From Candidatus Poribacteria bacterium (lineage in GTDB: Bacteria; Poribacteria; WGA-4E; WGA-3G), in the NCBI GenBank assembly GCA_965205025.1, contig CBDBFU010000004.1, forward strand, positions 64,001-128,000: a stretch of DNA of 64,000 nucleotides, written 5' to 3'. A model generated the notes under the pieces. The model searched no databases and was not told where the DNA came from. It saw only the letters and a list, made by a program, of their open reading frames with translations. Each line of letters begins with the position of its first letter. Position 1 is the stretch's first letter. The translations under genes and the position numbers were made by a program. Below, one piece after another: positions 16,429 to 41,092 of this stretch.

Positions 16429-17223
16429 ATGAAACCTGTCTATTTCATATTACTACTTATTCTCATCGTAAATATATCTGTGTTAGCCGAAATTCCAAAC
16501 GATAAAGACTTGCTATTGTGGATTGGTGAAGGAAGTGGTGCAAGAGCCATTGATGCTACGGGCAATGGGAATGATGGTACATTTGGTGGTTCAGCAAAAT
16601 GGGTTGCTGGACAAGGAAAATACGATGATGGAATTGTTCTTCGAGGAAAAGAGACATATCTTGAAATACCTAATGTAATTACCGAAACAGGAAGTGTAGT
16701 TTTTTGGTTCAAACCCGATTGGGATGGTAAAGATGATAAGGATTACAGACTTTTCGATGCAAGTCTTGGTGCCATTTACTTTTTTATCGGGAAAGGTTCC
16801 GCCCACCCAGACATTGCCCCACCACACTTTGGTATCTATTTTGAGGCTGCAGACGATGCTGATTGGCAGGATGTTGACTTTGATCCTACAGGTATCATTA
16901 AAAAAGGCCAATGGTTTCATTGTGCTGTTACCTGGGATTTCACTGGTGGACCACCATATGTCTATATTGACGGGAAAGAACGAGTTAAAAGCCGTGATAT
17001 TACAGGAGGATTCCCAAAACTACACGAAAAGCCAAGATTTGGTTGGGAAACTGTAGAGTATGTCGCAATGAACAACGGAGCTGAAGGAATCATTGATGAG
17101 ATATCATTCTGGGCACGTGCCTTAGATGTAGATGATATTCAGGATTTGATGGGTATAAGTCAGGATGTCGATGCAGTAGAGAAGTTGGCTATTTCATGGG
17201 GGGAACTGAAAGTAATCAAATAA
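16429..17223 (+). CDS. Secreted LamG/concanavalin-like domain protein with Poribacteria-type C-terminal tail
   Basis: AGGAGG RBS, signal peptide, DATGNGNDG, WFHCAVTWD, GIIDEISFW, tail VDAVEKLAISWGELK. Confidence 0.85.
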   Translation: MKPVYFILLLILIVNISVLAEIPNDKDLLLWIGEGSGARAIDATGNGNDGTFGGSAKWVAGQGKYDDGIVLRGKETYLEIPNVITETGSVVFWFKPDWDGKDDKDYRLFDASLGAIYFFIGKGSAHPDIAPPHFGIYFEAADDADWQDVDFDPTGIIKKGQWFHCAVTWDFTGGPPYVYIDGKERVKSRDITGGFPKLHEKPRFGWETVEYVAMNNGAEGIIDEISFWARALDVDDIQDLMGISQDVDAVEKLAISWGELKVIK

Positions 17224-17304
17224 TTTTCAACATAATGTATCTTATGGATTATAATAACTGTCCTTACTATTATTAAAACCTATATTGATTAAACACATGT
17301 CCGC

Positions 17305-17343
17305 AAAAAGGGGTAGTTGTTTTCAAACAACTACCCCTTTTTT
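17305..17343. terminator. Bidirectional intrinsic terminator between convergent genes
   Basis: AAAAA-GGGGTAGTTGTTT-tc-AAACAACTACCCC-TTTTTT. Confidence 0.85.
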
Positions 17344-17358
17344 ATTATTGCAATTTAA

Positions 17359-18429
17359 CTAAAAGGAATATAACGCCATCACAGAAACTAACATACCCAA
17401 TTTGAAGGCATCATTCTCTTGATATGTTCCATCTGACAGTCTAACATTATCATCATAGAGGGTTTCCTGTTGTATTGGAAGCATGACTGTTATTGACAAT
17501 GGCACATTATATGGTGTTGCAATCGATGCTCCAAAAGATGCCAGACTAAATCGCAGCCCAGTATTGATGTCAATTTCTCCTGCCCAATGTGCATAGGACT
17601 GATACAACCCAAGATAACTTGCCTGAAGAGTTACCCAATTATTGACTATGTAATTCAATCCTGCTGTATAAGTGATATCCCAAGAACCTCGATAGGTTTT
17701 ACTGTTTTCATAGAAAGGGTATTTGCCTCTTACATTGAGATTCGCACTCAACCCCCCATAAACAGGTAAAATGTATCGAATATCACCTATGGGATTAAAT
17801 GTACCTGTTCCAAATTGTATATGTAGATGCTTCAACCCTTTGTCACCAAGTATCCACGGATCTTCTTCAGTCTTACCCAACGGTAGCGTTGTTCCAAACT
17901 TAGCAAATAGTGTATCGTGCTGCATTAATATACCATGTGTGGTATACCCTAAAAGAAGATCCATATCTGAAATACCGCGGTAGGTTTCGTTCCGATGATG
18001 GATGTCTTGATTACGTAACATTGCCTCTTTCTGCAAGCTATCAGCCGGTTCTACCTCAACAATATTCGCATCCTGACTTTTTATTTCATAAGGGAGAGCA
18101 GCTTCCAAACGCCAATCATTATTGATGTGATATTTTAAGCCAAAATCGAATCGGACTACATTCAACTTCACTTCATGACGGTGCAATGGTACTAAAATCA
18201 CATCGCCAGAAGGAGACAAACCTTTTGCTTCGTGGTGTCCACCTTGGGCATAAAATCCTCGCGTCCCAAAAGATACCTGGAATTTACTATTTTCTGAAGT
18301 TAACCTAACTTCACTTACCCCACCCTGAGGGATAGTGGGGTTGCTTCACGCACCTCAGCTTTCTTGGGCAAAACCGAGTGGAAGGAAAATAAACTGTAGT
18401 GTTATAAATAACAAAAAAAGAAGTCTCAT
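17359..18429 (-). CDS. Putative outer-membrane beta-barrel channel (COG4313/SphA-like) and candidate selenoprotein with N-terminal UxxU, 356 aa
   Basis: ATG 18429 with AAGGA RBS is in frame with the track ORF and reads MRLLFLLFITLQFIFLPLGFA-QES-U-GA-U-SNPT. TGA at 18357-18355 and 18348-18346. Barrel-like motifs GISDMDL, LPLGK, QFGTG and terminal Phe (ALYSF). Confidence 0.8.
18317..18341 (-). promoter_or_regulatory. Candidate bacterial SECIS hairpin downstream of the UxxU codons
   Basis: ACCCCAC-UAUCCCUCAGG-GUGGGGU begins 13 nt after the first UGA and 4 nt after the second. GC-rich against an AT-rich background. Confidence 0.55.
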
Positions 18430-18551
18430 TATTTTTCCTTTGGAATTATATTAGTATGTATTTAACATTTTAGTTGTATATTGACACACTTGTAATCACT
18501 CAAAGTTCCCAAATCAGCATTGAGAGCATTACAATGAATTGTTTAGATTTA

Positions 18552-18665
18552 ATGAAGATTAATTTACTAATTCGGTAACTTTCCTGTAAAGTCCGGTACG
18601 GTTAGGAAACCGCACCTACCGGGTTTGGGAAAGTAGAATTACCGAAATATTTACTTAATCCTCAT
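18552..18665. mobile_element. 114-bp MITE family A, copy 1 (identical to 51476-51589)
   Basis: TIRs ATGAAGATTAA / TTAATCCTCAT, internal hairpin CCGGTAcGGTtaGGaaaCCgcACCTACCGG. Partial related copy near 12970-13037. Confidence 0.85.
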
Positions 18666-18694
18666 ACAATCTAAATATACATGCTATATACATG

Positions 18695-18723
18695 ATTTTA
18701 ACATATACAATCACAGTTGTCAA
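18695..18723 (-). promoter_or_regulatory. Sigma70-type promoter facing the UxxU gene
   Basis: Minus strand TTGACA, 17 bp, TGnTAAAAT. Confidence 0.55.
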
Positions 18724-18793
18724 AATAGATTAATATGTAAATTAAATCTTCCCATAATACCGTTAGTGTACTGTATAACACCCTAAAATCATA

Positions 18794-18822
18794 TTGACAG
18801 GACAGAAATGATAACATATACT
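18794..18822 (+). promoter_or_regulatory. Sigma70-type promoter of the ABC operon
   Basis: TTGACA, 17 bp, TATACT. Confidence 0.6.
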
Positions 18823-18884
18823 TTATCCTCAATCAACATTGATAATTTCATGATATAAAAGCAACAAATTTAAATGGAGAAATA

Positions 18885-19736
18885 ATGAGCAATTATGAGG
18901 TGTTTGTTAATGCTAAGACACATTTAGTAGTAGAGACTGATACCGGAAGATGTTTAGGAGGATTGGGTGCTAACTTCTACCGTCCCTTTGTGTTTCCATT
19001 TTATACACCTGCTGGACATACTGTTATTCAGGAATTCGCTTTTGACCATCCATTTCATAATGGTATATTTGTTGGGCAAGCACCAGTAAAAGTAGGAGAA
19101 CGTGAGGCTGGTTTTTGGGGTTCACCTCCCCGTCGTTCCTTTACAGATAAAGTATTCATAAATTTAGGTCGTATGGAAACACAGCAAGAGATTTCCATCT
19201 CTCCACATACAAACGGTGTTGAATTTGTACAGAAGGTTATTTGGCGGGATGAAAATGAAGAACCACTAATTGATGAAATTCGGACAGTAAATTTACACTC
19301 TGTTGAAGATGGAACTGTTTGTGACATGACAAGTGAGAAAACAGCTTCTTATGGAATAACAGAATACCCACAAACTAAATTTGGAAGCATCGGTATGCGT
19401 GTTGAACCCAGACTCTTACCTGTTATGGGAGGTATTGTACTCGCTGACAATAATCGTAAAGGCAAGGCAGAAGTTGTTCAGGAAAGTGATTCTGATTATG
19501 TCGCATACCAAAATCAGTTGCCTGGACACGGTGATTACGGTATTTTGATGACTATTCTTGATAAAGATATCCGTGGACCGTGGTTCATTCGAGATTACGG
19601 TATGGCACTCTATAATCCCACTTGGAGAGATTCAATTACAATACCTGAGAATGAAACATGGAAAATTGGTCTTAGGTTCGTTGCTTATGATGGCGCGTTA
19701 ACAACCGAGAGAGCAAATAACTGGTGTAGGGTTTAA
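18885..19736 (+). CDS. DUF6807 (annotated 'PmoA-like') family protein
   Basis: RPFVFPFYTPAG and DHPFHNGIF motifs. GGAG RBS. Confidence 0.7.
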   Translation: MSNYEVFVNAKTHLVVETDTGRCLGGLGANFYRPFVFPFYTPAGHTVIQEFAFDHPFHNGIFVGQAPVKVGEREAGFWGSPPRRSFTDKVFINLGRMETQQEISISPHTNGVEFVQKVIWRDENEEPLIDEIRTVNLHSVEDGTVCDMTSEKTASYGITEYPQTKFGSIGMRVEPRLLPVMGGIVLADNNRKGKAEVVQESDSDYVAYQNQLPGHGDYGILMTILDKDIRGPWFIRDYGMALYNPTWRDSITIPENETWKIGLRFVAYDGALTTERANNWCRV

Positions 19737-23401: not shown

Positions 23402-26400
23402 CTAATAGGGAGTTCCTACACGTATATAGAAAGTATTAATTGGAACATTCGGTACTGTAATTATCGGTACCGCGTAATCGATCCCGCCAATAAATGGACC
23501 AAGATCTAACCTTAATCCAACACCTACCGATGAAGGTAACCATTCAAACTTAACATCCTCAAAAGTATCCCACACATTTCCTGAATCAAAAAATAAAACT
23601 CCATCAAATGGTGCAAAAATGGGGAAACGTAACTCAGTATTAAAGATAAACTGTATATTTCCACGGTGCTTTCCCGTACTATCCACTGGTCCAAGTCCAC
23701 GTTCCTCATAACCGCGTACAGTTGTACTACCACCTGCCCAGAAGCGTTCAAACGAGATTAATTCTGAATCTTGATCTTCCTCTTGTAAACCTGTGGTGAT
23801 GCCTATTCGGATAGCTGGTGCAAGTACAAAACCACGGTCGTTTAACAACCGATGTGCACGAAAGTCAGCAATTGTCTTAATAAAACTACTTTTACCACCC
23901 AGAAAACCTCCAGCATATTCCACAGTTACCTCATTCAACATACCTGACTTAGGATTAATAGGTGGTATCCGATTATCGTGTCTCCATAGTAAACGTAAAC
24001 TGCTAACTGTAGTTGACGGATTAATAACTGATGTAGTTTCTGATGTATCTTTTAGTCCTCTGTAACTATACTCAAAATTAAAACGATGCGAATCATATAA
24101 TCTTCTACTAAGAGTAAAACTTCCTTGCAATGCTCTGACACCGTCATCTTCTTCTAATTTCCTTCCAAGAAATTGCAGACTCCCACTTGTCCTCCCTAAT
24201 AGCCACGGCTCTGTGAGTGTTGTATCATAAAGATAACCTCGTGTCCCCCACCTGCCACGTAACCGAAACCTATTATTACGTTTTAATAGGTTAACATGAC
24301 TTAATGAGATCGTACCTCTCGGACCATCAGAAGAACTATATCCGATACTTGCACCGTATGCTCCCGGTTTTCGTTTCTGTAATCGGATTAAGACATCTTG
24401 GTATATTGGTTGAGTGGATAAAAGACTCCCTGGATTTGGTTGTATATTTTGATATGTACTTCCTCCAAGGTCGGTTTGTGTTCTTCGTTTGGTTCGGATT
24501 CCTGGTTCAAAGACACCTGTGTTATTTAGGTTTTGAATGGCTTTACTCAGTTTTTCTGGTGTGAAAAGTGTTCCTTGAAGGTGTACGACTTCACGATCAA
24601 GGACAAATTGTCTAACACCCGCGTCTCCAGCAAATAAAATTTCACCAAATCCTATCTTGTCCCCTTCATTAATCTCAAAATGAACCACACCATGTTCAAA
24701 TACAGATAGGGTAGTGTGTCCCTGTTTTAAGGTATAACGAGGGTTACCATTAATATCTTGAATACTCCACTCATCACCGAGACTGGTAGCGATGTATGTC
24801 CCCGAAAGTGATAGATGATGTTTTTGGAATTCTTCTGTAATTTCATTCGGAACTAATCCTGAATTCAACATCTCAGAAAAATTTCCATCAATTTGAAAAA
24901 CAGGAGTTATCATTTTATCTATATATTGTGTGTTCGGTGGATTTATAATTTCAACGTCCATATACCCATGATCCTGGTATACTTTCAGAATAGCGTTCTG
25001 AAAGCTTTTTAGTATTAAAGGAGCATTAGGCTGAGGGAGTTTGCTTGGTAGGGCATTAAGAAGAGTAGCAGTATCAAGTGCATTGTTACCTGAGAAAACA
25101 CATCGGTTAATTACCTCTTTGCGATCTTCAAAAACTATCAGATGGATCGAAACTTCACCAAACTTGCTGTTCTTAGGTATTCTTTTGTCCAGTTGTTGTA
25201 CTCTGATAGATGCTTTAGGGTAACCTGCTTTTTGATACAATATTCGTAATCTTTCAAGATCTTGTGTTAATTCTTGCTGAGTGAATATATGTTTACGAAA
25301 TAGTTGGATTGCTATATGAGAAGGTTTGGTATCAATTTCTCGTAACAATTCCTGTTCACTAAACGCAAAATTCCCTTCAATGATAATGTCTTTAACTATA
25401 TATCTTTGACCTTTAGTAACAGTAAATTTAATATGTAGAGGAGAGTTCGTTAATTTCTCCCATTCTACTGTTGTATTGTCATAGCCTTTTGCCTTAAAAT
25501 GAGACTGCACGGTTTGCGACCATAGAGTTTCAGAATTCAGATACGTAATAATCCTATTTCTAAGAAGATCTTTCTCTGATTCACCTGTAATGACACCTAT
25601 TTGTTTGAGTACATTCCGAACAATAAAATCAGAGAATATCATTTTTCCACTTTCATCTACAAATTCAAGTAATAACTGTGTGCCTTCAACTATCTTGATA
25701 GTTAGTAGTCCTGTTTCCTTGTTAAAGTCGGCAACTATATCACTATTAGGATAGTACTTCTCTTTATAGAAATCTTGAATTGCTAAGATTGCATCATTTA
25801 CATCGGATTTACGATATACTTCTCCAATAAACTCTCCTGCGACCCCCTTAAGATATTCAGAGAATACTGTTGAATTTCCTTGAAGATGGAATTTAGAGAT
25901 AATTGTTGGACTCCCCAAGTCAATCTGATATGTTAAAATCCCAGTATCTGTTTCTGTAATTATCTCTATCTGGCTATTAAAGTATCCATTATCCGCACAC
26001 ACTTCCTTAATCGAACTTTCATCTCTCTTAGCAATAGTTGGTAGATACATCCCACCAGGTTCCAATCTAATCGTATCTCGGATTGCTTTATTTAGTTCAT
26101 CTGAATCGACACCTATAAGTTTTATCGATTGAAGATGCATAACATTCTCTAATTCAAACTGCACAACAATCCCTTCAGATGTATCTTTGGTGTATACATT
26201 AATTTGTGAAAACTGATTTAAAGAATAGAGAGAATTTATACTCAGTTTTATTGCATTCCGGGAAAACTTTGAACCAAGCTCTATTTGTGTATGTTCTTTT
26301 AGAATGTTATGAATTTGGTCGTTAGTTACAGGTAGATTGTCTATGGTGTATTCAATCCTAACGACCTTTTTTGAGTGCAAGGAATGCTCTGTAGGATTTA

Positions 26401-26539
26401 TGGGTAGAACAGTAATGTTCTCCTCTGCTGAATAAGAATTCAAACAAAAGACACACTGGAATAACAGAATTATCCCTTGAAGAATATAAACCTTATCAGA
26501 CAGATAGGTAAAGGATCTTAACTTGGTGTTCAGACACAT
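23402..26539 (-). CDS. tamA: BamA/TamA (Omp85) family outer-membrane protein with multiple POTRA domains
   Basis: Repeated POTRA signatures (IEGN..FS..EL), GGSTTVRGY, FFDSGNVW. Directly downstream of tamB. Confidence 0.8.
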   Translation of the reverse strand: MCLNTKLRSFTYLSDKVYILQGIILLFQCVFCLNSYSAEENITVLPINPTEHSLHSKKVVRIEYTIDNLPVTNDQIHNILKEHTQIELGSKFSRNAIKLSINSLYSLNQFSQINVYTKDTSEGIVVQFELENVMHLQSIKLIGVDSDELNKAIRDTIRLEPGGMYLPTIAKRDESSIKEVCADNGYFNSQIEIITETDTGILTYQIDLGSPTIISKFHLQGNSTVFSEYLKGVAGEFIGEVYRKSDVNDAILAIQDFYKEKYYPNSDIVADFNKETGLLTIKIVEGTQLLLEFVDESGKMIFSDFIVRNVLKQIGVITGESEKDLLRNRIITYLNSETLWSQTVQSHFKAKGYDNTTVEWEKLTNSPLHIKFTVTKGQRYIVKDIIIEGNFAFSEQELLREIDTKPSHIAIQLFRKHIFTQQELTQDLERLRILYQKAGYPKASIRVQQLDKRIPKNSKFGEVSIHLIVFEDRKEVINRCVFSGNNALDTATLLNALPSKLPQPNAPLILKSFQNAILKVYQDHGYMDVEIINPPNTQYIDKMITPVFQIDGNFSEMLNSGLVPNEITEEFQKHHLSLSGTYIATSLGDEWSIQDINGNPRYTLKQGHTTLSVFEHGVVHFEINEGDKIGFGEILFAGDAGVRQFVLDREVVHLQGTLFTPEKLSKAIQNLNNTGVFEPGIRTKRRTQTDLGGSTYQNIQPNPGSLLSTQPIYQDVLIRLQKRKPGAYGASIGYSSSDGPRGTISLSHVNLLKRNNRFRLRGRWGTRGYLYDTTLTEPWLLGRTSGSLQFLGRKLEEDDGVRALQGSFTLSRRLYDSHRFNFEYSYRGLKDTSETTSVINPSTTVSSLRLLWRHDNRIPPINPKSGMLNEVTVEYAGGFLGGKSSFIKTIADFRAHRLLNDRGFVLAPAIRIGITTGLQEEDQDSELISFERFWAGGSTTVRGYEERGLGPVDSTGKHRGNIQFIFNTELRFPIFAPFDGVLFFDSGNVWDTFEDVKFEWLPSSVGVGLRLDLGPFIGGIDYAVPIITVPNVPINTFYIRVGTPY

Positions 26540-26541
26540 TA

Positions 26542-29500
26542 TTAGAAACGTCTCTCCAACAACTGTAAATCAACCCCAAATTCACCTTTTTCATCTCCTT
26601 CCATTCTAATAGACATATTATTCCCAAAAGGCAAAGGATATTCCCCGATGATGTGACGTTGTTTTGGATCAAACCCTGAGGAGATAGTGAATGTGATACC
26701 AGCAAAAGACCTTGAAATAGAATTGCCTGGTGAAAGCAACGCGAGAACATCCGCATCAGTAAATATAACAGTCGTAGAAGAATTTATGGGTTCAGCCCCT
26801 AAATTAACTTTCGCATTACCTATGTCTCCATTTTCGAGTTTGCCTGTAACTGTTGCAGTAATCATTAAATCCGCTATGCTTCCATCACTAAGTACCACAC
26901 CTCGAATTGGATTAGGTGTCATGAGTATAATGTCTAACTCTGGATTAAAGGATTTGTCACTAAGATTTCTGATTGTAGACCCCTCTTGTATCTCAAATAT
27001 CTGTGTTATAATACTAATCTTCCCTCGTAGAATAGAAAGATCCCCCGTAAAAATAGGTGCTTGAATTGCCCCAGTAAGTTGTCCTCGACACTTAATCTCA
27101 ATGTCTGTATGTCCCCCAGTTGATGATAACAGGTGAAATTTGTTAGGGATATCTATACCCAAATCTAAGGTGACATTTCGTATGAATGGCATATAGAACA
27201 ATAGATCTGTATCAGTTACTGTACCTGCGGAGAATGAGTCAAGGAGATCTTCCCAATTCCAATTCTGTTTATATTGCCCCGAATGGATTCTGATATCTCC
27301 ATTAAGCTTTGTGTCTGCAATCATCCCTGTTAAATGTAAATTCTCAGAACTTAACTCAATCTGGTATTTTTCATTTTCAGTAAAGATAGAGTTTTTCATA
27401 CTACCTATAACATCCACACTCTGAACTTGAAACCAATCAGTAATTATATTACCATTTGCTGTGAAGTCTCCACCGTTTAGTTGTCCTTTCATTTCATCAA
27501 ATCTAATACCTTGTTCTGTGAATTCAAAGGTAGATTCAAGATTCTCAAAAAATATAGGAGAACGTGCAATAGATAGTGAATCAATATTAAAGTTGCCATG
27601 TCCAGAAATCTTTGATGCATCTACGTTTCCAGTAATTGTTGCAGTGATATTACCTTCCCCAACGGCAGATTGAACATGAGGATCAATAAGTGGTAATATA
27701 CCGAGTTGATCCATTATTACACTAATTCTTACATCCATTGGATCTGATGAGGGTTCAATTTTTGATTCTATCAGAGATATATTTAAAGGAACACTACCTG
27801 AACAAATAACTCTATTCTTACCAATACGAATTTGTGTTTTCTCTTCTACAATCGTCCAATGTTGGTTGAGAGAATCATAACGAAACTCTCCAGAAAATTC
27901 ATCAATCCCAGCTTGATTTATAGTCAGTCTTTCTCCTTCTAATCTGATAAGAATATTCGGTGCAGCGTATTCACCTGTAATACTAACAGTTGTGGACAAC
28001 ATTCCATTCATTTTATAGAGTTTTGTAAATTCATTAGGTAGGAAATAATTAAGGGTAGAAATATTGAAATTGCTAATCTTTAGATTGGCGAAGATCTCTC
28101 CATACAGATCCAGTCTGCCAAAACAACTTAGAACAAGCGGATTAGTGACTTCATTTGGATTGACAGGAATCGTATTCTCAAGTCTTAACCCTTTCAATCT
28201 GAATGTGCCAGTATTAAGAGTAAATGGAACGGTTTCTGGATTTGTAAATTCATATTGCTGATCTAAATAAAGAAAACCGAATGAAATATGATCGATAGTA
28301 AATTCTGCTTCTGCCTCACGCGAAATAGCATCAAAGTTTACACTTCGAACTATTTTCGGTATTGGAATTTCCTCTCCTTGTTGAAAGAAACTATCAAATG
28401 ATAACATCATTTTAGAAATAGATGTCGTCACCTCACCATTTACTTCCTTGAAGAAATCAGAAGGTAGAACCTTCTGTAAAACAGAACCCAGAGGGTATTT
28501 CGTGAATGATACATCCTCGATGATTAAATGCTTAGGCATTAACCCCTCAAGTTGTAATTCGCCTTTTCGTAGATCGAAATTTCCATCACCCATTTCAAAT
28601 TTACATTGAACTAACTCAATAAGACCTTCACGTGCCTTAAGTTGTAACCTCATCTTTTCCAACACTTGATTTAGTGCTTTCGTCTGAACTTTCCTTGCTT
28701 CTATAAATACATTTCCATCCATATAAGGACTTTGGGTCGTACCATTTAGTGATAATTTAATATCGGTGACTCCATCTGCTTCTGCAAAAATAGTGTCTAT
28801 TCCTGGAAAAAATGTAAGCGGCAATTCATTTCCTGCCAATTGAAGATTTATGGGTAAATCAATAAACCTGTCTCGTATTGAAACTTTTTCTAAATTTAGG
28901 TTGAAGGGAATAAATCCAGTTAGTTTTAGTGAATGTCCATTATTGTTAAGTTCAGATAGTATAGTTATCTGCTTTTCCAAATACTGGATGTTCCCACTCC
29001 ATTGGATAGGTAGATTGGATTGTTTGTGTAATAGGTTTATAAGTGATCCTTGCCAGTTAACATCTATTTTAGGGGTGATAATATTCCCCCCAATACCAAT
29101 GTTAACTTGAGAATTGAGAGTAGGAGAGGTAAGTCTTAGAGGAATTAATGTGGTTATGATACTATCTTTTAATGCTAAATCGATAGGGGTAATATTGGTA
29201 ATTTGGATATTGTGGCTATTTAAAATAAGCTCATGAATCTCGCTGGTCATTGAAATATCATTATAGTTAAATCCGTTACCTGAAATTTTCATACTTCCAC
29301 TGATATTTCCAGTAAGGAGTGAAGAATCTACATTGAAATCCTTGAGAAAATCGGCAATTTCCAACTTCTCAGCAGAAACTGCTAAGGTATAATTGATTTT
29401 CTTATTGTTGATCCTTGAAAATGATGTCTCGCCATCTACCTGGATATTACTTTTCCCAATCTGACCATTGACTAATAAATCATTAATACCAACTAACTCT

Positions 29501-32500
29501 GATCCAATCGTTGCAGTGGCATGTATTTTATCCATTCTGATAGGTTTTTCAAATGTACCAATGTATATAGGATAATCATCAACTGTATGTGAATTAATGT
29601 CAATAATAGGTTCTGCTATACTACCATTAATATTTAGTTGCACTTTAACATTCCCGTTTAAAAATGTCGTATCTCTTGCAGAAAGATGGTTCACTACTTC
29701 ATTAGGTAAAGAGTTTTTCAGGATATTTGAGAAATTAGTTAATCCGATATCATCACCGTTGACATTCAGCTTGAGTTGCGATTTCTCAATGTTTTCTTGA
29801 TTGATTGTTATATCACCATCTACTTGAATGATATTATTCAATAAATCAAATGAGAATGGCAGAATATGTAGTTTATTATTATTATAATTAAACTCACCAT
29901 TAGCATTACTAATCCCAATATCTCCTGAATCAGTATTCCAAACTAAGGAGGGTATTTGCCAACTAACACTCACTATAGGATTGGTCAAAGTGCCTTGCAG
30001 TTTCAGATCATAATATGCTAATCCAGTAATCGGAAGATTTAATTCATTGACGAAAGCATTTAGTGTTAAGTCTTGGTTATGAGATGATACGATGTTAATC
30101 TTTTCAGTTTTTGCATCAATTGTACCTGCGATTTGTAGGAAGGGTTCCCGACCTTGACCTATAGCGAGGGAACTATCAGTGAATGTTATAATATCATCCA
30201 GAATTTCTATTCGAATAGGGTTGGGGTTTGAGAAATGTAATGAATTGTATTGAAGTTCAGTGTCGTTGATAACTATATCAACATCATACGGATATACCCG
30301 TCTTTCTGACTCCTCTTGCTTAGTAGATGCCAACTCAGCAATTGTGCCTTTGATTCTAACTATGCTGTCTGCTGTTCCTGTTATGGATTCGAGGGTAGGA
30401 TGGAAGATCCGTAAAATCGGTGCTGCAGCGATTTTCTTACTTATAGCTGTAAAGTCATAGGGATTGTCTGCACCAACACTCACTGTACCTTCTATATTGG
30501 TCGTATCTTCAAATGCTTTACCAACGAATTTAAAATATCCTGGATCAGTACTTTTCTCAGGTGGCTCTATTAATTTACCATGAACATACCCATCACCGAG
30601 AGGATTATTATTGAATGAAAGATCTGTAATGTGTATTGAAACTTCTGTAGAGGAAACATCTGGTTTTTTATAGAATGAGGTGACATTTACATTCATCATA
30701 CCATTGAATGGAAAATCATCAATACTTGCAGCAACAGCAATCTCAGACATTTTAATTGGATTGTCTTTATTATTCTTTAGACTAAAATCAAACTCACCTG
30801 TCTTAGATACATGTGTATTAAGAGTAACTAATTGATCCCGTGAAGTTATTTGGAAATCTTGGATAGTTAAGGAGGTATCATTAATATCTAATTGAAACTG
30901 CAATGGATCTAACTTAATTTCCCAAGCTACTCCAGATTCAACACTAAATTCTCCTCTACCATCAAGATGTGTAAGAGAATTGTAAAGATTTAACTCACCA
31001 GAGATGATCCCATCTATTGGATAATTATTCTTAAGAAGGATTCTGTTATAGTCTTGATCCAAAACGAGTTTTTCAGCAATTATTCTCATATTGACAGGGA
31101 GTTTCCCTTCCAACTTAACTTCACCCTCAATGGCTATTTTTGTGTCTCCATCAAAACCATTCTTTGTTAAGTATGCGTTTTCAAAATACACAGTACCATT
31201 CTGGTATTGATAATCCCCTGCCAATCGTCCCATTGGAATATAATCATTATCAAAGAAGGCATCTGGTATTTCAATATGTCCTGTAGCAGTCCTATCCTCT
31301 TTGATTTGTGTTGTAATCGTACCAATACCTTTTAGGGGTAATGTATTAGCAATTTCACAGAGCTTACCAAAGTCTACATTACTCAAGACCACCGTTGGAG
31401 TTTTAAGATTCCCATTAATATCAACATCAGATCCGTCTATTTTCCCATCTACCATTATTGCCAATGAATCATCAGATTCTGGTTTGATAGTACAATTTAG
31501 AGATGAATCCTGTAATTTGATAGTCTTAGTCCGAGTTAGTAAACTTGCATCTGATAGTTGTATATTTCCATTAAAATCAAAGTTTCCATTATTAGTATTA
31601 CCGGTTAGTTTTGCTGAACCAGAAATGATCCCAGATTTAATTTGTGGGACTGAAGATGGAATTTCAACCCAAATAGGAATAAGTGGTTTGAGTTGAACAT
31701 CAGATATATCCCAATTGCTCTTATAAGATATTGGATTTTTTACGAAGTGTTGGATTCTTTCGATAATATTCCCTTCAGATGAATTGTCAAATGTCAAACT
31801 ACCCGTGCCAGAAAGATTACCCTCTGCAATCTGTAGACTTAACTCATTAAATGTAATCATTGAATCTTCGTTTAATTCTAATGATGTATCAACAAATATA
31901 TTTGAAATGTCTATCCGTTTTGTGTTGGTTATTAATGGTGTCTTCAGATCTACCCTCTTCTCAATTAGCAATTTCGGTGCTACTACAATAATAGAACCAT
32001 TTAGAGTTGTGTTTGTTCCGTTAACCTCAATTGAAATCTTCCCATTCCCATTTAATTGTAGATCGTGAATAAAGAGTCTTTCAATATCTGCTGCGTCAAA
32101 ATCCAGCTCTGCGTTTAACTCCCATTTATTATTATTCCACTCACCACTCAAAATGAGATCTGAGTTGCCAAATTTCAGATGATGTTCTCGTAAATTACCC
32201 CCTGTTGACGATAGGTTAAATTGGATTTCCTTCTCTAAAGTGTCAACAGATAACTCTTCTCCATCTATAGAAAAACTACCTTTGCCAAAGATAAGTTTGC
32301 CAGAATGTCCGGATTCCTTTTGCTTTCCATCCACTTTTAAGGTGATGTCTGGGAGGTTAAACTGGGTATTATTCTTTTTATCAATGAAATTAATTTGACC
32401 CTTTTTGACATTGACATTTGAAATATCTAAGGTAAAAGATGAGTCCGATTCCTGAGATGATTCCCGTAATACTTGGGTAAGGTTGACCTGTCCTTCAGCA

Positions 32501-32862
32501 TTGCGACGTATGTTTAATTCAGGATAGTTTATTTCCAGACCTGAGATAACCAATTTGCGTCTAAGTAAACCAAAAAAATCGTAATTTAATACTATATCTG
32601 TTGTAGTGAGAACAGGAGGAGTATCAACATTTTTTTCTCTTATCCTAAACTCTTTAACTTCTATTCCAGTAAAAATATTTCCACTTAACCTATCAATATA
32701 TACAGTGTATTTAGCATCTATTTGATCCTCTATGACTCGGATTATGGGTTCTTTAAGAAATTCATCCAAGAAATAACTTGATCTAAGGAATAGAAATCCA
32801 AACAATCCAATTAGTAAAAAGCATATAGTAAATGCAAGTATTATTTTCTTTCTTCGTGTCAT
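26542..32862 (-). CDS. tamB: TamB/AsmA-like translocation and assembly module protein (2106 aa)
   Basis: N-terminal anchor, long Gly-rich beta repeats, C-terminal TamB-like region (FNPELDI). Adjacent to the Omp85 gene. Confidence 0.82.
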   Translation of the reverse strand: MTRRKKIILAFTICFLLIGLFGFLFLRSSYFLDEFLKEPIIRVIEDQIDAKYTVYIDRLSGNIFTGIEVKEFRIREKNVDTPPVLTTTDIVLNYDFFGLLRRKLVISGLEINYPELNIRRNAEGQVNLTQVLRESSQESDSSFTLDISNVNVKKGQINFIDKKNNTQFNLPDITLKVDGKQKESGHSGKLIFGKGSFSIDGEELSVDTLEKEIQFNLSSTGGNLREHHLKFGNSDLILSGEWNNNKWELNAELDFDAADIERLFIHDLQLNGNGKISIEVNGTNTTLNGSIIVVAPKLLIEKRVDLKTPLITNTKRIDISNIFVDTSLELNEDSMITFNELSLQIAEGNLSGTGSLTFDNSSEGNIIERIQHFVKNPISYKSNWDISDVQLKPLIPIWVEIPSSVPQIKSGIISGSAKLTGNTNNGNFDFNGNIQLSDASLLTRTKTIKLQDSSLNCTIKPESDDSLAIMVDGKIDGSDVDINGNLKTPTVVLSNVDFGKLCEIANTLPLKGIGTITTQIKEDRTATGHIEIPDAFFDNDYIPMGRLAGDYQYQNGTVYFENAYLTKNGFDGDTKIAIEGEVKLEGKLPVNMRIIAEKLVLDQDYNRILLKNNYPIDGIISGELNLYNSLTHLDGRGEFSVESGVAWEIKLDPLQFQLDINDTSLTIQDFQITSRDQLVTLNTHVSKTGEFDFSLKNNKDNPIKMSEIAVAASIDDFPFNGMMNVNVTSFYKKPDVSSTEVSIHITDLSFNNNPLGDGYVHGKLIEPPEKSTDPGYFKFVGKAFEDTTNIEGTVSVGADNPYDFTAISKKIAAAPILRIFHPTLESITGTADSIVRIKGTIAELASTKQEESERRVYPYDVDIVINDTELQYNSLHFSNPNPIRIEILDDIITFTDSSLAIGQGREPFLQIAGTIDAKTEKINIVSSHNQDLTLNAFVNELNLPITGLAYYDLKLQGTLTNPIVSVSWQIPSLVWNTDSGDIGISNANGEFNYNNNKLHILPFSFDLLNNIIQVDGDITINQENIEKSQLKLNVNGDDIGLTNFSNILKNSLPNEVVNHLSARDTTFLNGNVKVQLNINGSIAEPIIDINSHTVDDYPIYIGTFEKPIRMDKIHATATIGSELVGINDLLVNGQIGKSNIQVDGETSFSRINNKKINYTLAVSAEKLEIADFLKDFNVDSSLLTGNISGSMKISGNGFNYNDISMTSEIHELILNSHNIQITNITPIDLALKDSIITTLIPLRLTSPTLNSQVNIGIGGNIITPKIDVNWQGSLINLLHKQSNLPIQWSGNIQYLEKQITILSELNNNGHSLKLTGFIPFNLNLEKVSIRDRFIDLPINLQLAGNELPLTFFPGIDTIFAEADGVTDIKLSLNGTTQSPYMDGNVFIEARKVQTKALNQVLEKMRLQLKAREGLIELVQCKFEMGDGNFDLRKGELQLEGLMPKHLIIEDVSFTKYPLGSVLQKVLPSDFFKEVNGEVTTSISKMMLSFDSFFQQGEEIPIPKIVRSVNFDAISREAEAEFTIDHISFGFLYLDQQYEFTNPETVPFTLNTGTFRLKGLRLENTIPVNPNEVTNPLVLSCFGRLDLYGEIFANLKISNFNISTLNYFLPNEFTKLYKMNGMLSTTVSITGEYAAPNILIRLEGERLTINQAGIDEFSGEFRYDSLNQHWTIVEEKTQIRIGKNRVICSGSVPLNISLIESKIEPSSDPMDVRISVIMDQLGILPLIDPHVQSAVGEGNITATITGNVDASKISGHGNFNIDSLSIARSPIFFENLESTFEFTEQGIRFDEMKGQLNGGDFTANGNIITDWFQVQSVDVIGSMKNSIFTENEKYQIELSSENLHLTGMIADTKLNGDIRIHSGQYKQNWNWEDLLDSFSAGTVTDTDLLFYMPFIRNVTLDLGIDIPNKFHLLSSTGGHTDIEIKCRGQLTGAIQAPIFTGDLSILRGKISIITQIFEIQEGSTIRNLSDKSFNPELDIILMTPNPIRGVVLSDGSIADLMITATVTGKLENGDIGNAKVNLGAEPINSSTTVIFTDADVLALLSPGNSISRSFAGITFTISSGFDPKQRHIIGEYPLPFGNNMSIRMEGDEKGEFGVDLQLLERRF

Positions 32863-40045: not shown

Positions 40046-41092
40046 TTAATACACCTGAATATGAGCAATATCAGAGTCTACTACTTCTCCGATAATGGCG
40101 GCTTCTGGACAATTCCCAGAATGTAGTTCTTCTATTGCAGAATCCGCATTCTCTGCAGGAAGTGCAAAGAGTAATCCACCAGATGTTTCTGCTTCCATCA
40201 ATATATGCTGCATCTCATCGGAAACTGTGGACTTAAATGTCACTTTATCAGATAGAAATGCAGTATTGGCAAGATACGCTTGTGTGTAAGTATCTTGAGC
40301 AACAAGAGAAGGAGCATCTGGGAAATATGGGACAGTCTTACAGTTAATCATTAGGCCAATATCATTTCCGCCAGCCATTTCAGATGCATGTCCAAGTAGT
40401 CCATAACCGGTTACATCTGTACAAGCACTCGCATCATACTTTAACATTACTTCAGAAGCCGTAGCATTTAATCTTGTCATAGATTCAACAACTTGTGGCA
40501 ATATCTTATCGCTAATTTTGTCAAATTTTAATCCTGTTGTGAGAATACCTACACCCAGATTCTTCGTTAATATCAGGACATCTCCCGGTTGTGCTCCATA
40601 ATTCTTAATATATTTCTCTGGATGAACAACCCCTGTAACCGCTAATCCATACATCAATTCTGGTGAATCTACTGTATGGCCTCCGACAAGAACAGCCCCT
40701 GATTCTACAACTTTATCCGCGCCACCTTTGATAATATCACCAAGGACTGACAACTCAAGATCAGATTTTGGCCAGCATGTAATATTCAATGCTGTCTTCG
40801 GCTTACCCCCCATACTATACACATCACTTAATGAATTTGTCGCTGCAACAGCACCGAAAGTATATGGATCATCAACAATTGGTGTGAAATAATCTACAGT
40901 ATTAACAAGAGCAATATCATCTGAGAGACGGTATATTCCAGCATCGTCAGATGTTTCAGTTCCTACGAGCAAATTGGGGTCTGTTGATTCTGGCAAGTTA
41001 TCCAATATGTGTTCAAGCTCACCCGGAGCAAGTTTAGATGCTCAGCCAGCACATTTTACAGTAGCAGTTAGACGAATCTTTTGTTTAGTCAT
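40046..41092 (-). CDS. selD: Selenophosphate synthetase, selenocysteine-containing form (U17), 348 aa
   Basis: Frame extends from ATG 41092: MTKQKIRLTATVKCAG-U-ASKLAPGEL with TGA at 41044-41042. Motifs DDAG, DYFTP, NSLSDVYSMGG, GGHT, DVTGYGL.GH, ETSGGLL. Hairpin GCUC-cgggu-GAGC 12 nt after the UGA. Confidence 0.96.

Follow-up and report, generated by a model that had tools for sequence, protein, structure and literature searches.

The question raised by this locus is whether two in-frame TGA codons near the start of a gene for a putative outer-membrane protein are stops or are read as selenocysteine (Sec, U) and, if they are read as Sec, what a UxxU motif does in such a protein. The gene lies on the minus strand (17359..18429) of the window, a 64,000-nucleotide (nt) stretch of a Candidatus Poribacteria genome (assembly GCA_965205025.1, contig CBDBFU010000004.1, positions 64,001 to 128,000), and had been proposed as a new selenoprotein in an earlier reading of this DNA, referred to here as the first-pass annotation. 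Judging by sequence conservation, the gene very probably encodes a true two-Sec selenoprotein. Taken as a whole, the data are probably best explained by an exported two-Sec barrel with an N-terminal plug that binds soft metals; the soft-metal role itself, which is argued from gene context, is proposed tentatively and with slightly more doubt than confidence.

A read-through gene with two internal TGA codons

The full read-through gene comprises 356 codons and a stop, and encodes a signal peptide, the UxxU motif and a predicted 12-stranded barrel ending in ...ALYSF. Direct reading of the sequence places a Shine–Dalgarno-like AAGGAA (18435..18440, minus strand) 5 nt ahead of the ATG (18429..18427), which opens a signal peptide, MRLLFLLFITLQFIFLPLGFA (18367..18429, minus strand), probably cleaved after GFA; relatives keep this signal peptide, with the motif three to four residues beyond it. 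Frame translation continues the product from MRLLFLLFITLQFIFLPLGFA into QES-U-GA-U-SNPTIPQGG, the DNA around the motif being QES-TGA-GGT-GCG-TGA-SNP. Ahead of the terminal stop (17361..17359), the frame contains two internal stops, both TGA and spaced as in CxxC, as the first-pass annotation had described: TGA 1 is codon 25 (putative Sec25, 18355..18357, minus strand) and TGA 2 is codon 28 (putative Sec28, 18346..18348, minus strand). The same annotation had observed that the 286-amino-acid (aa) open reading frame (ORF) starting at TTG lacks a signal peptide, and that a ribosome-binding site, an ATG and a signal peptide lie 70 codons upstream; all of these elements were found exactly where they had been placed.

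The truncated table-11 ORF (17359..18219, minus strand) is the form present in public protein sets. A search of 5.8 billion proteins returned 556 homologues, whose source names point to Candidatus Poribacteria, and the best 120 of them are all 261–327 aa long without a signal peptide, suggesting that gene callers cut them at the same place. Over the stretch, 0 differences were found in the contigs of two runs, which are possibly the window's own source, and this result bears on presence and identity, not on expression. Among RNA runs, none was found to contain the locus.

Selenocysteine and cysteine alternate at both positions

Of the 151 phylum genomes covered by a six-frame search, 122 had at least one copy of the gene, and all 150 matches listed (50–99% identity) contained one to three in-frame TGAs and no other stop, a pattern well beyond chance. 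One orthologue (G058:C5:4400-5467) carries three in-frame TGAs rather than two, of which the additional one could be a third Sec, a genuine stop or a mistake in the assembly. Codon 28 was TGA and codon 25 was TGA or TGY in all Poribacteria copies that were examined, the most divergent of which had approximately 38% identity. Loci L009–L044 showed TGA..TGA in 34 of 36 cases and TGC..TGA in the other two, and 20 further copies comprised 13 with UGAU and seven with CPAU, the latter belonging to a paralogue. The CxxU form was present in this Poribacteria paralogue and in two distant copies.

Beyond these copies, 80 loci from a species-representative genome set comprised 41 UxxU, 18 CxxU and 19 CxxC forms and two loci without the motif; the UxxU and CxxU forms all belonged to Poribacteria or to unnamed metagenome-assembled genomes, and all 19 CxxC forms to Bacteroidota. 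A set of 80 metagenome loci, found via a clade of high-GC CxxC relatives, comprised 60 CxxC, 13 UxxU and two CxxU forms and five loci with none, and any stop at the motif positions was TGA. In distant full-length proteins from a library of 1.8 billion representatives, AC[PAS][AG]C.NP aligned onto U25/U28, with N30 and P31 invariant. The scan for the motif and hairpins covered both strands without an ORF filter, and its 11 stray hits (UxxC/CxxC in Poribacteria, UxxC/UxxU in Bacteroidota) were off-target and were ignored. These tallies indicate Sec/Cys alternation at both positions, with Sec forms in more than one lineage, those of the metagenome loci being independent. Cys-bearing homologues at positions 25 and 28, which the first-pass annotation had set as the test of its proposal, therefore exist as CxxU in the Poribacteria paralogue and as CxxC in Bacteroidota and the high-GC relatives. 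The in-frame UGAs are conserved together with the coding sequence on both sides, and Cys homologues occupy the UGA columns, the pattern by which bacterial selenoproteins are recognised. Two public records (P0165 and P0189) carry Trp at the Sec positions, as a translation of TGA as Trp would, and this annotation artefact hides the selenoprotein.

The genome of the window (5.66 Mb, 95% complete) contains selA (599 bits), selB (366 bits), a Sec-type selD (364 bits) and selC, the gene for tRNA-Sec (78.5 bits), located 58 nt downstream of selB, all over curated cut-offs; selA, selB and selC had been named beforehand as genes to be sought. The selD gene lies in the window (40148..41074, minus strand) and is itself a selenoprotein gene with an in-frame TGA near 41044 (..VKCAGUASK..), in agreement with the earlier description of it as Sec-type. 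Approximately 16 nt past this UGA is a small hairpin with the loop CGGGU, the ordinary layout of a bacterial Sec insertion sequence (bSECIS). Across the phylum, selB was over its cut-off in 146 of 151 genomes, and the three genomes with the barrel and without a selB hit are 80–81% complete.

RNA structure follows the selenocysteine forms

A GC-rich hairpin 3' of the TGAs had also been reported in the first-pass annotation. The hairpin is present, though on its own it only modestly exceeds shuffled sequences (86 nt, z −1.76, with 13 of 200 shuffles equally good). This hairpin, H1 (ACCCCAC/GUGGGGU, 18317..18341, minus strand), starts 5 nt past TGA 2 and is followed by a second, H2 (GAAGUUA-GGU-UAACUUC, 18296..18312, minus strand). 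In an alignment of 55 distinct Poribacteria sequences, H1 showed compensatory changes between CG and UA and between AU and GC, pair 24–52 being UA in 22, CG in 19 and UG in seven sequences, and pair 28–42 being AU in 22, GC in 17 and GU in six. H2 reads GAAGUYA-GUU-URACUUC across the alignment, with 97.9% of cells paired, and its pair 63–69 is CG in 28 and UA in 26 sequences, covarying through synonymous third positions of Val and Leu codons. The pairing of H1 and H2 together reached 86.8% of cells compared to 27–51% with slid partners, and the covariation score was matched by 0 of 500 shuffles. RNAalifold applied to all UxxU sequences recovered H2 but not H1, because the register of H1 shifts between subclades, and H1 therefore rests on a structure given by hand.

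Against synonymous randomisation of the 60 nt past codon 28, z was −2.65 for the CxxU forms (n=26) and −1.40 for the UxxU forms (n=74), whereas the Bacteroidota CxxC forms had no extra stability (z −0.28, n=18). In the GC-rich clade, z was approximately 0 to +0.5, a value that is uninformative since it is the first and second positions of the codons that encode the hairpin there. According to the accessible text of the published bSECIS model, the loop has 3–9 nt with a G in its first two positions and lies 16–37 nt from the UGA. The G[GU]-loop hairpin H2 was found in 95 of 102 Poribacteria Sec forms. Of 14 high-GC Sec forms, 13 have a hairpin of textbook form at precisely 17 nt past UGA 2 and 26 nt past UGA 1, with the loop GGUC, GGU or GGC, compared to five of 55 high-GC CxxC relatives and, at the two distances, 0 of 19 and one of 19 Bacteroidota CxxC forms. 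The RNA structure thus tracks the Sec forms, not the Cys forms. A search of Rfam with 17200..18900 gave no SECIS and no other credible family.

The segment 18337..18389, which holds the end of the signal peptide, UGAU and part of H1, has a summed contig depth of 483 compared to 30 elsewhere in the contig sets of two runs, because several other contigs are near-identical over this stretch of approximately 50 nt. Such hyperconservation across paralogues or strains fits a constraint at the RNA level.

A COG4313-like barrel with conserved histidines

The identification as an outer-membrane barrel made in the first-pass annotation agrees with the structure predicted by AlphaFold2 from 78 sequences, a 12-stranded barrel with its strands in residues 50–355 (predicted local distance difference test, pLDDT, 87.6; predicted template-modelling score 0.84). 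The best structural match was 4rl8 (Pput2725; Z 24.7, root-mean-square deviation 2.7, 253 of 268 residues), followed by FapF (Z 23.1), then autotransporter barrels, and FadL/TodX at Z of approximately 14. The His-rich motifs and the C-terminal Phe remarked on earlier are present, and several of the His residues proved to be conserved family-wide: among the 78 aligned members, H144, H145 and H201 are invariant, H65, H85 and H203 occur in at least 90%, and R146, D155, P183 and a QFGTGTF.P stretch are also invariant or near-invariant. Judging by the order of the strands, most of the conserved His, Glu and Asp residues would belong to loops outside the cell or to the upper part of the barrel wall.

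A language-model search placed the protein beside clusters of PF13557 (COG4313/Phenol_MetA_deg; Pput2725, SphA and TcpY), and one relative passes the PF13557 threshold (P0073, 25.7 compared to 22 bits) whereas another does not (P0222, 19.3 bits). The window protein itself had no PF13557 match at E<=1, and searches of Pfam and NCBIfam gave it only sub-threshold matches to generic outer-membrane proteins. NCBIfam searches with four CxxC relatives gave no match, and a profile of the 78 members found no meaningful match among the PDB sequences (lowest E 0.39). The family shares with COG4313 the 12-stranded barrel and an N-terminal segment ahead of strand 1, a segment that occludes the lumen in Pput2725 (4rl8) according to the part of that report available. 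Unlike COG4313, it carries a CxxC/UxxU-SNP motif at the N-terminus and a cluster of invariant His residues (HHR, HxH), and the genes associated with it concern metals and thioredoxin, not the catabolism of hydrophobic substrates. FapF, an amyloid-secretion barrel (5o65), is also similar in structure (Foldseek E 1e-11), but the identity is 11–13%, and the window protein has no fap operon around it and FapF no CxxC motif.

Gene neighbourhoods of the family

The window copy is monocistronic, with a Laminin_G_3 gene on one side and a divergent DUF6807/ATP-binding cassette (ABC) transporter cluster on the other, and has no adjoining mer genes. Directly 3' of its stop codon is a 17-bp terminator-like hairpin with A and T runs on its flanks (17305..17342), shared with the convergent gene.

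The relatives have other neighbours. In 17 of 20 Bacteroidota CxxC loci, a gene for an HMA+thioredoxin protein lies directly upstream on the same strand; MerTP-type/HMA genes were found in 14, MerA in five, an HMA P-type ATPase in five, an ArsR regulator in nine and a CsoR-like repressor in eight of the 20. At one such locus (L078), MerTP (287.9 bits, cut-off 180) and MerA (501.2 bits, cut-off 454) passed the curated NCBI cut-offs. The HMA+thioredoxin fusion (L078:5208-5990, with equivalents at the other loci of the 17) is encoded within mer-like operons, has a sub-threshold match to NF041115 and seems to be an undescribed mer accessory gene.

The CPAU paralogue of Poribacteria has a 145-aa Cys-rich protein directly upstream in 17 of 17 loci and, in 10 of the 17, a Cus-like cluster downstream that consists of genes for a His/Met-rich protein, OEP and a CusB-like HMBD protein. 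The Cys-rich protein (L100:5398-5835 and 16 other CPAU loci) has the pattern CPLLC..FCH..CCQ..CCS and no Pfam or NCBIfam match. The His/Met-rich protein, located 3' of the paralogue, is 232 aa long and precedes the Cus-like efflux genes at the 10 loci.

Among the high-GC relatives, a thioredoxin-domain gene abuts the barrel at locus L165. Three others (L197:5329-7011, L206:5338-6966 and L223:5502-7001) are 500–560 aa long, with an N-terminal extension of approximately 200 aa without a Pfam match, and neighbouring lineages have a separate thioredoxin-domain gene in place of this extension. The barrel was also found fused to HMA (P0137) and to thioredoxin plus cupredoxin (P0237).

A scenario for the selenocysteine pair and its alternatives

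The following scenario is proposed for the window protein. Translation would start at the ATG at 18429, and the UGA codons 25 and 28 would be decoded as Sec by the SelA, SelB, tRNA-Sec and SelD of the genome, aided by the conserved RNA hairpins just 3' of the UGAs. Removal of the signal peptide at the predicted cleavage site would leave the mature N-terminus QES-U-G-A-U-SNP, followed by approximately 25 flexible residues and then by a 12-stranded outer-membrane barrel of the COG4313/FapF type, and by analogy with COG4313 the N-terminal segment may lie in the barrel lumen. The dithiol of the motif, here a diselenol, may bind thiophilic metals such as Hg(II) or Cu(I)/Ag(I) on their way through the outer membrane, or pass them on, and a periplasmic thioredoxin-fold or HMA partner may keep the motif reduced or unloaded; we infer both the identity of the metal and the direction of transport. 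The soft-metal role is drawn from gene context, namely the HMA-thioredoxin, MerTP and MerA neighbours of the CxxC forms and the Cus-like cluster of the CxxU paralogue. Together, the thioredoxin-fold and HMA partners, the mer and cus neighbours and the His cluster would point to the capture or hand-over of thiophilic metals. The soft-metal uptake suggested in the first-pass annotation is thus supported indirectly, by the mer and cus neighbourhoods and the HMA, thioredoxin and cupredoxin fusions of relatives, but not by the window copy or its genome.

In its widest form, the proposal would make the barrel the missing outer-membrane step of thiophilic-metal traffic, leading from a His-rich vestibule to the plug dithiol and on to an HMA-thioredoxin or MerP-type partner, with a diselenol used in sponge symbionts and some soil lineages; the Poribacteria UGAs, 9 nt apart, would be served by a split SECIS, composed of H1 as a spacer and H2 as a canonical loop approximately 40 nt downstream, outside the current bSECIS model. 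In this full extent the proposal is speculative and somewhat unlikely to hold.

Several observations weigh against the scenario. No metal-related gene adjoins the window copy; in its genome, MerA stays below the cut-off (383.9 compared to 454 bits) and no MerT was found. The commoner UGAU type of Poribacteria, near which a conserved 145-aa membrane protein is encoded, lies between an aldo/keto reductase and an ABC system with a family-5 solute-binding protein, without a metal signature. COG4313 channels are thought, in the portions of the literature available, to carry hydrophobic molecules and not metals. The N-terminal 45 residues of the predicted model are of low confidence (pLDDT below 60–72), and the location of the N-terminus in the lumen consequently depends on the COG4313 analogy. 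Neither Poribacteria hairpin fully fits the bSECIS model: H1 has the right spacing but mostly lacks a loop that starts with G, and H2 has a loop obeying the G[G/U] rule but sits approximately 39–43 nt past TGA 2, outside 16–37 nt. Finally, selB is nearly universal in the phylum, and its co-occurrence with the barrel is therefore not discriminating. Because the Poribacteria copies lie outside mer operons, they cannot serve to import mercury for MerA; they may instead act in the trapping of metals, in Cu/Ag handling or in a redox process.

The main rival to metal hand-over accepts the same selenoprotein and takes its motif for a redox switch, in which a plug diselenide or disulfide, reduced by a neighbouring thioredoxin-fold protein, would gate a COG4313-type channel for small or hydrophobic substrates. 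Across clades, no neighbour or fusion partner recurs as constantly as a thioredoxin-domain gene (17 of 20 Bacteroidota loci, L165 and P0237), but the Bacteroidota partner is itself fused to HMA and stands amid MerTP, MerA and P-type ATPase genes. CxxC/UxxU is classically a redox motif and the majority of selenoproteins have redox functions, whereas the CxxU paralogue belongs to a Cus-like cluster and the invariant His cluster is more typical of a metal site than of a redox gate. The hydrophobic substrates and mobile N-terminus of COG4313 relatives, as described in the accessible part of the literature, and the lack of metal genes near the window copy are consistent with gating, and we regard a redox switch as unlikely though worth weighing seriously.

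It is very improbable that the barrel of the window imports or exports selenium or sulfur species instead of metals, with selenide or polysulfide held as Se-Se or S-Se adducts on the motif. A plug diselenol could hold such chalcogen adducts, and selD is encoded within the same 64-kb window, but selD is 22 kb away, selA, selB and selC are on other contigs, no sel linkage is conserved, and the genes found with the Cys forms of relatives are mer, HMA and cus genes.

Still less probable is that near-cognate or recoded decoding inserts a standard residue, such as Trp or Cys, at the UGAs. The Trp in records P0165 and P0189 and the incomplete match of both Poribacteria hairpins to the bSECIS consensus would suit such decoding. 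However, TGA ends 240 of the 1385 stop-to-stop ORFs of at least 400 codons in the genome, indicating that it is a normal stop there and has not been reassigned, and the Sec machinery is complete. Furthermore, the 79 Cys-form loci read hold Cys and never Trp encoded by TGG, and the high-GC UxxU forms have the textbook GGUC-loop hairpin 17 nt past TGA 2.

Least probable of all is that the TGAs are ordinary stops, with the 286-aa TTG ORF or a pseudogene as the real entity and the signal peptide as a leftover upstream ORF, since, although table 11 yields precisely this ORF and the best 120 homologues are all annotated in truncated form, such truncation is the usual effect of gene callers on selenoproteins, the short form lacks a signal peptide and begins inside barrel strand 1, the upstream 70 codons are conserved as in-frame protein to approximately 38% identity with TGA as the only stop, and relatives carry Cys codons in the same columns.

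Relation to known selenoproteins

Eukaryotic selenoprotein L, which has a Prx-like fold, contains a UxxU that can form a diselenide; unlike the window protein, it is a soluble thioredoxin-fold protein of aquatic animals with a eukaryotic SECIS. A 2026 catalogue of 119 prokaryotic selenoprotein families lists UxxU in three of them (Prx-like, NF041115 and FmdB) and includes two outer-membrane selenoproteins (PMC13188914). The earlier suggestion of an unrecognised class thus stands for the family, which is absent from the catalogue, and does not stand for its two features taken singly, UxxU and outer-membrane selenoproteins each being known already. The fold and motif of the family are not among the 119 families (PMC13188914, Table 1), in NCBIfam or in Pfam, and a literature search, with supplementary tables outside its scope, found no description of the barrel family or of an outer-membrane mer component.

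Among the known families, those closest in their use of Sec are NF041115 (UxxU_metal_bind), Sec-containing MerT (C/SxxU) and a MerT/CopZ fusion, in which UxxU likewise replaces the CxxC of a soft-metal site, and at L078 the products of two genes lying upstream of the CxxC barrel, HMA-thioredoxin and MerTP, match these models below threshold. Unlike these small HMA-fold or inner-membrane proteins, the window protein is a predicted outer-membrane barrel without an HMA domain and without an NF041115 match. The GSU2204/MtrB-PioB barrel (NF041027) and the FCYXU-type TonB-dependent receptor (NF049945) resemble it in having Sec in an exported outer-membrane barrel (PMC13188914), but they differ in fold, size and motif, have one Sec each and show no sequence match to it in NCBIfam. 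The window protein therefore very probably represents a selenoprotein family that is new, as well as a new form of COG4313-type channel, and its SECIS layout is unusual.

The family would add a widespread two-Sec member to the prokaryotic selenoproteome, with Sec forms also in metagenomes from soil and mats. Truncation by gene callers is universal and leaves only headless barrels in public protein sets. The RNA layout in Poribacteria challenges the spacing rule used in SECIS prediction and may explain why the family was missed. The Cys forms constitute an undescribed outer-membrane gene attached to mer operons. In the accessible part of a mer review, the outer membrane appears only in a figure legend, and the portions of the mer reviews searched assign no protein to the crossing of the outer membrane by Hg(II), a step for which the barrel is a testable candidate. 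A diselenol in the plug, if true, would mean that selenium serves a novel purpose outside the cytoplasm.

Another outer-membrane gene in the window

Elsewhere in the window, an Omp85/POTRA protein of 1045 aa (23402..26539, minus strand) adjoins a 2106-aa ORF (26542..32862, minus strand), a pair that we take to resemble a TamA/TamB-like translocation module.

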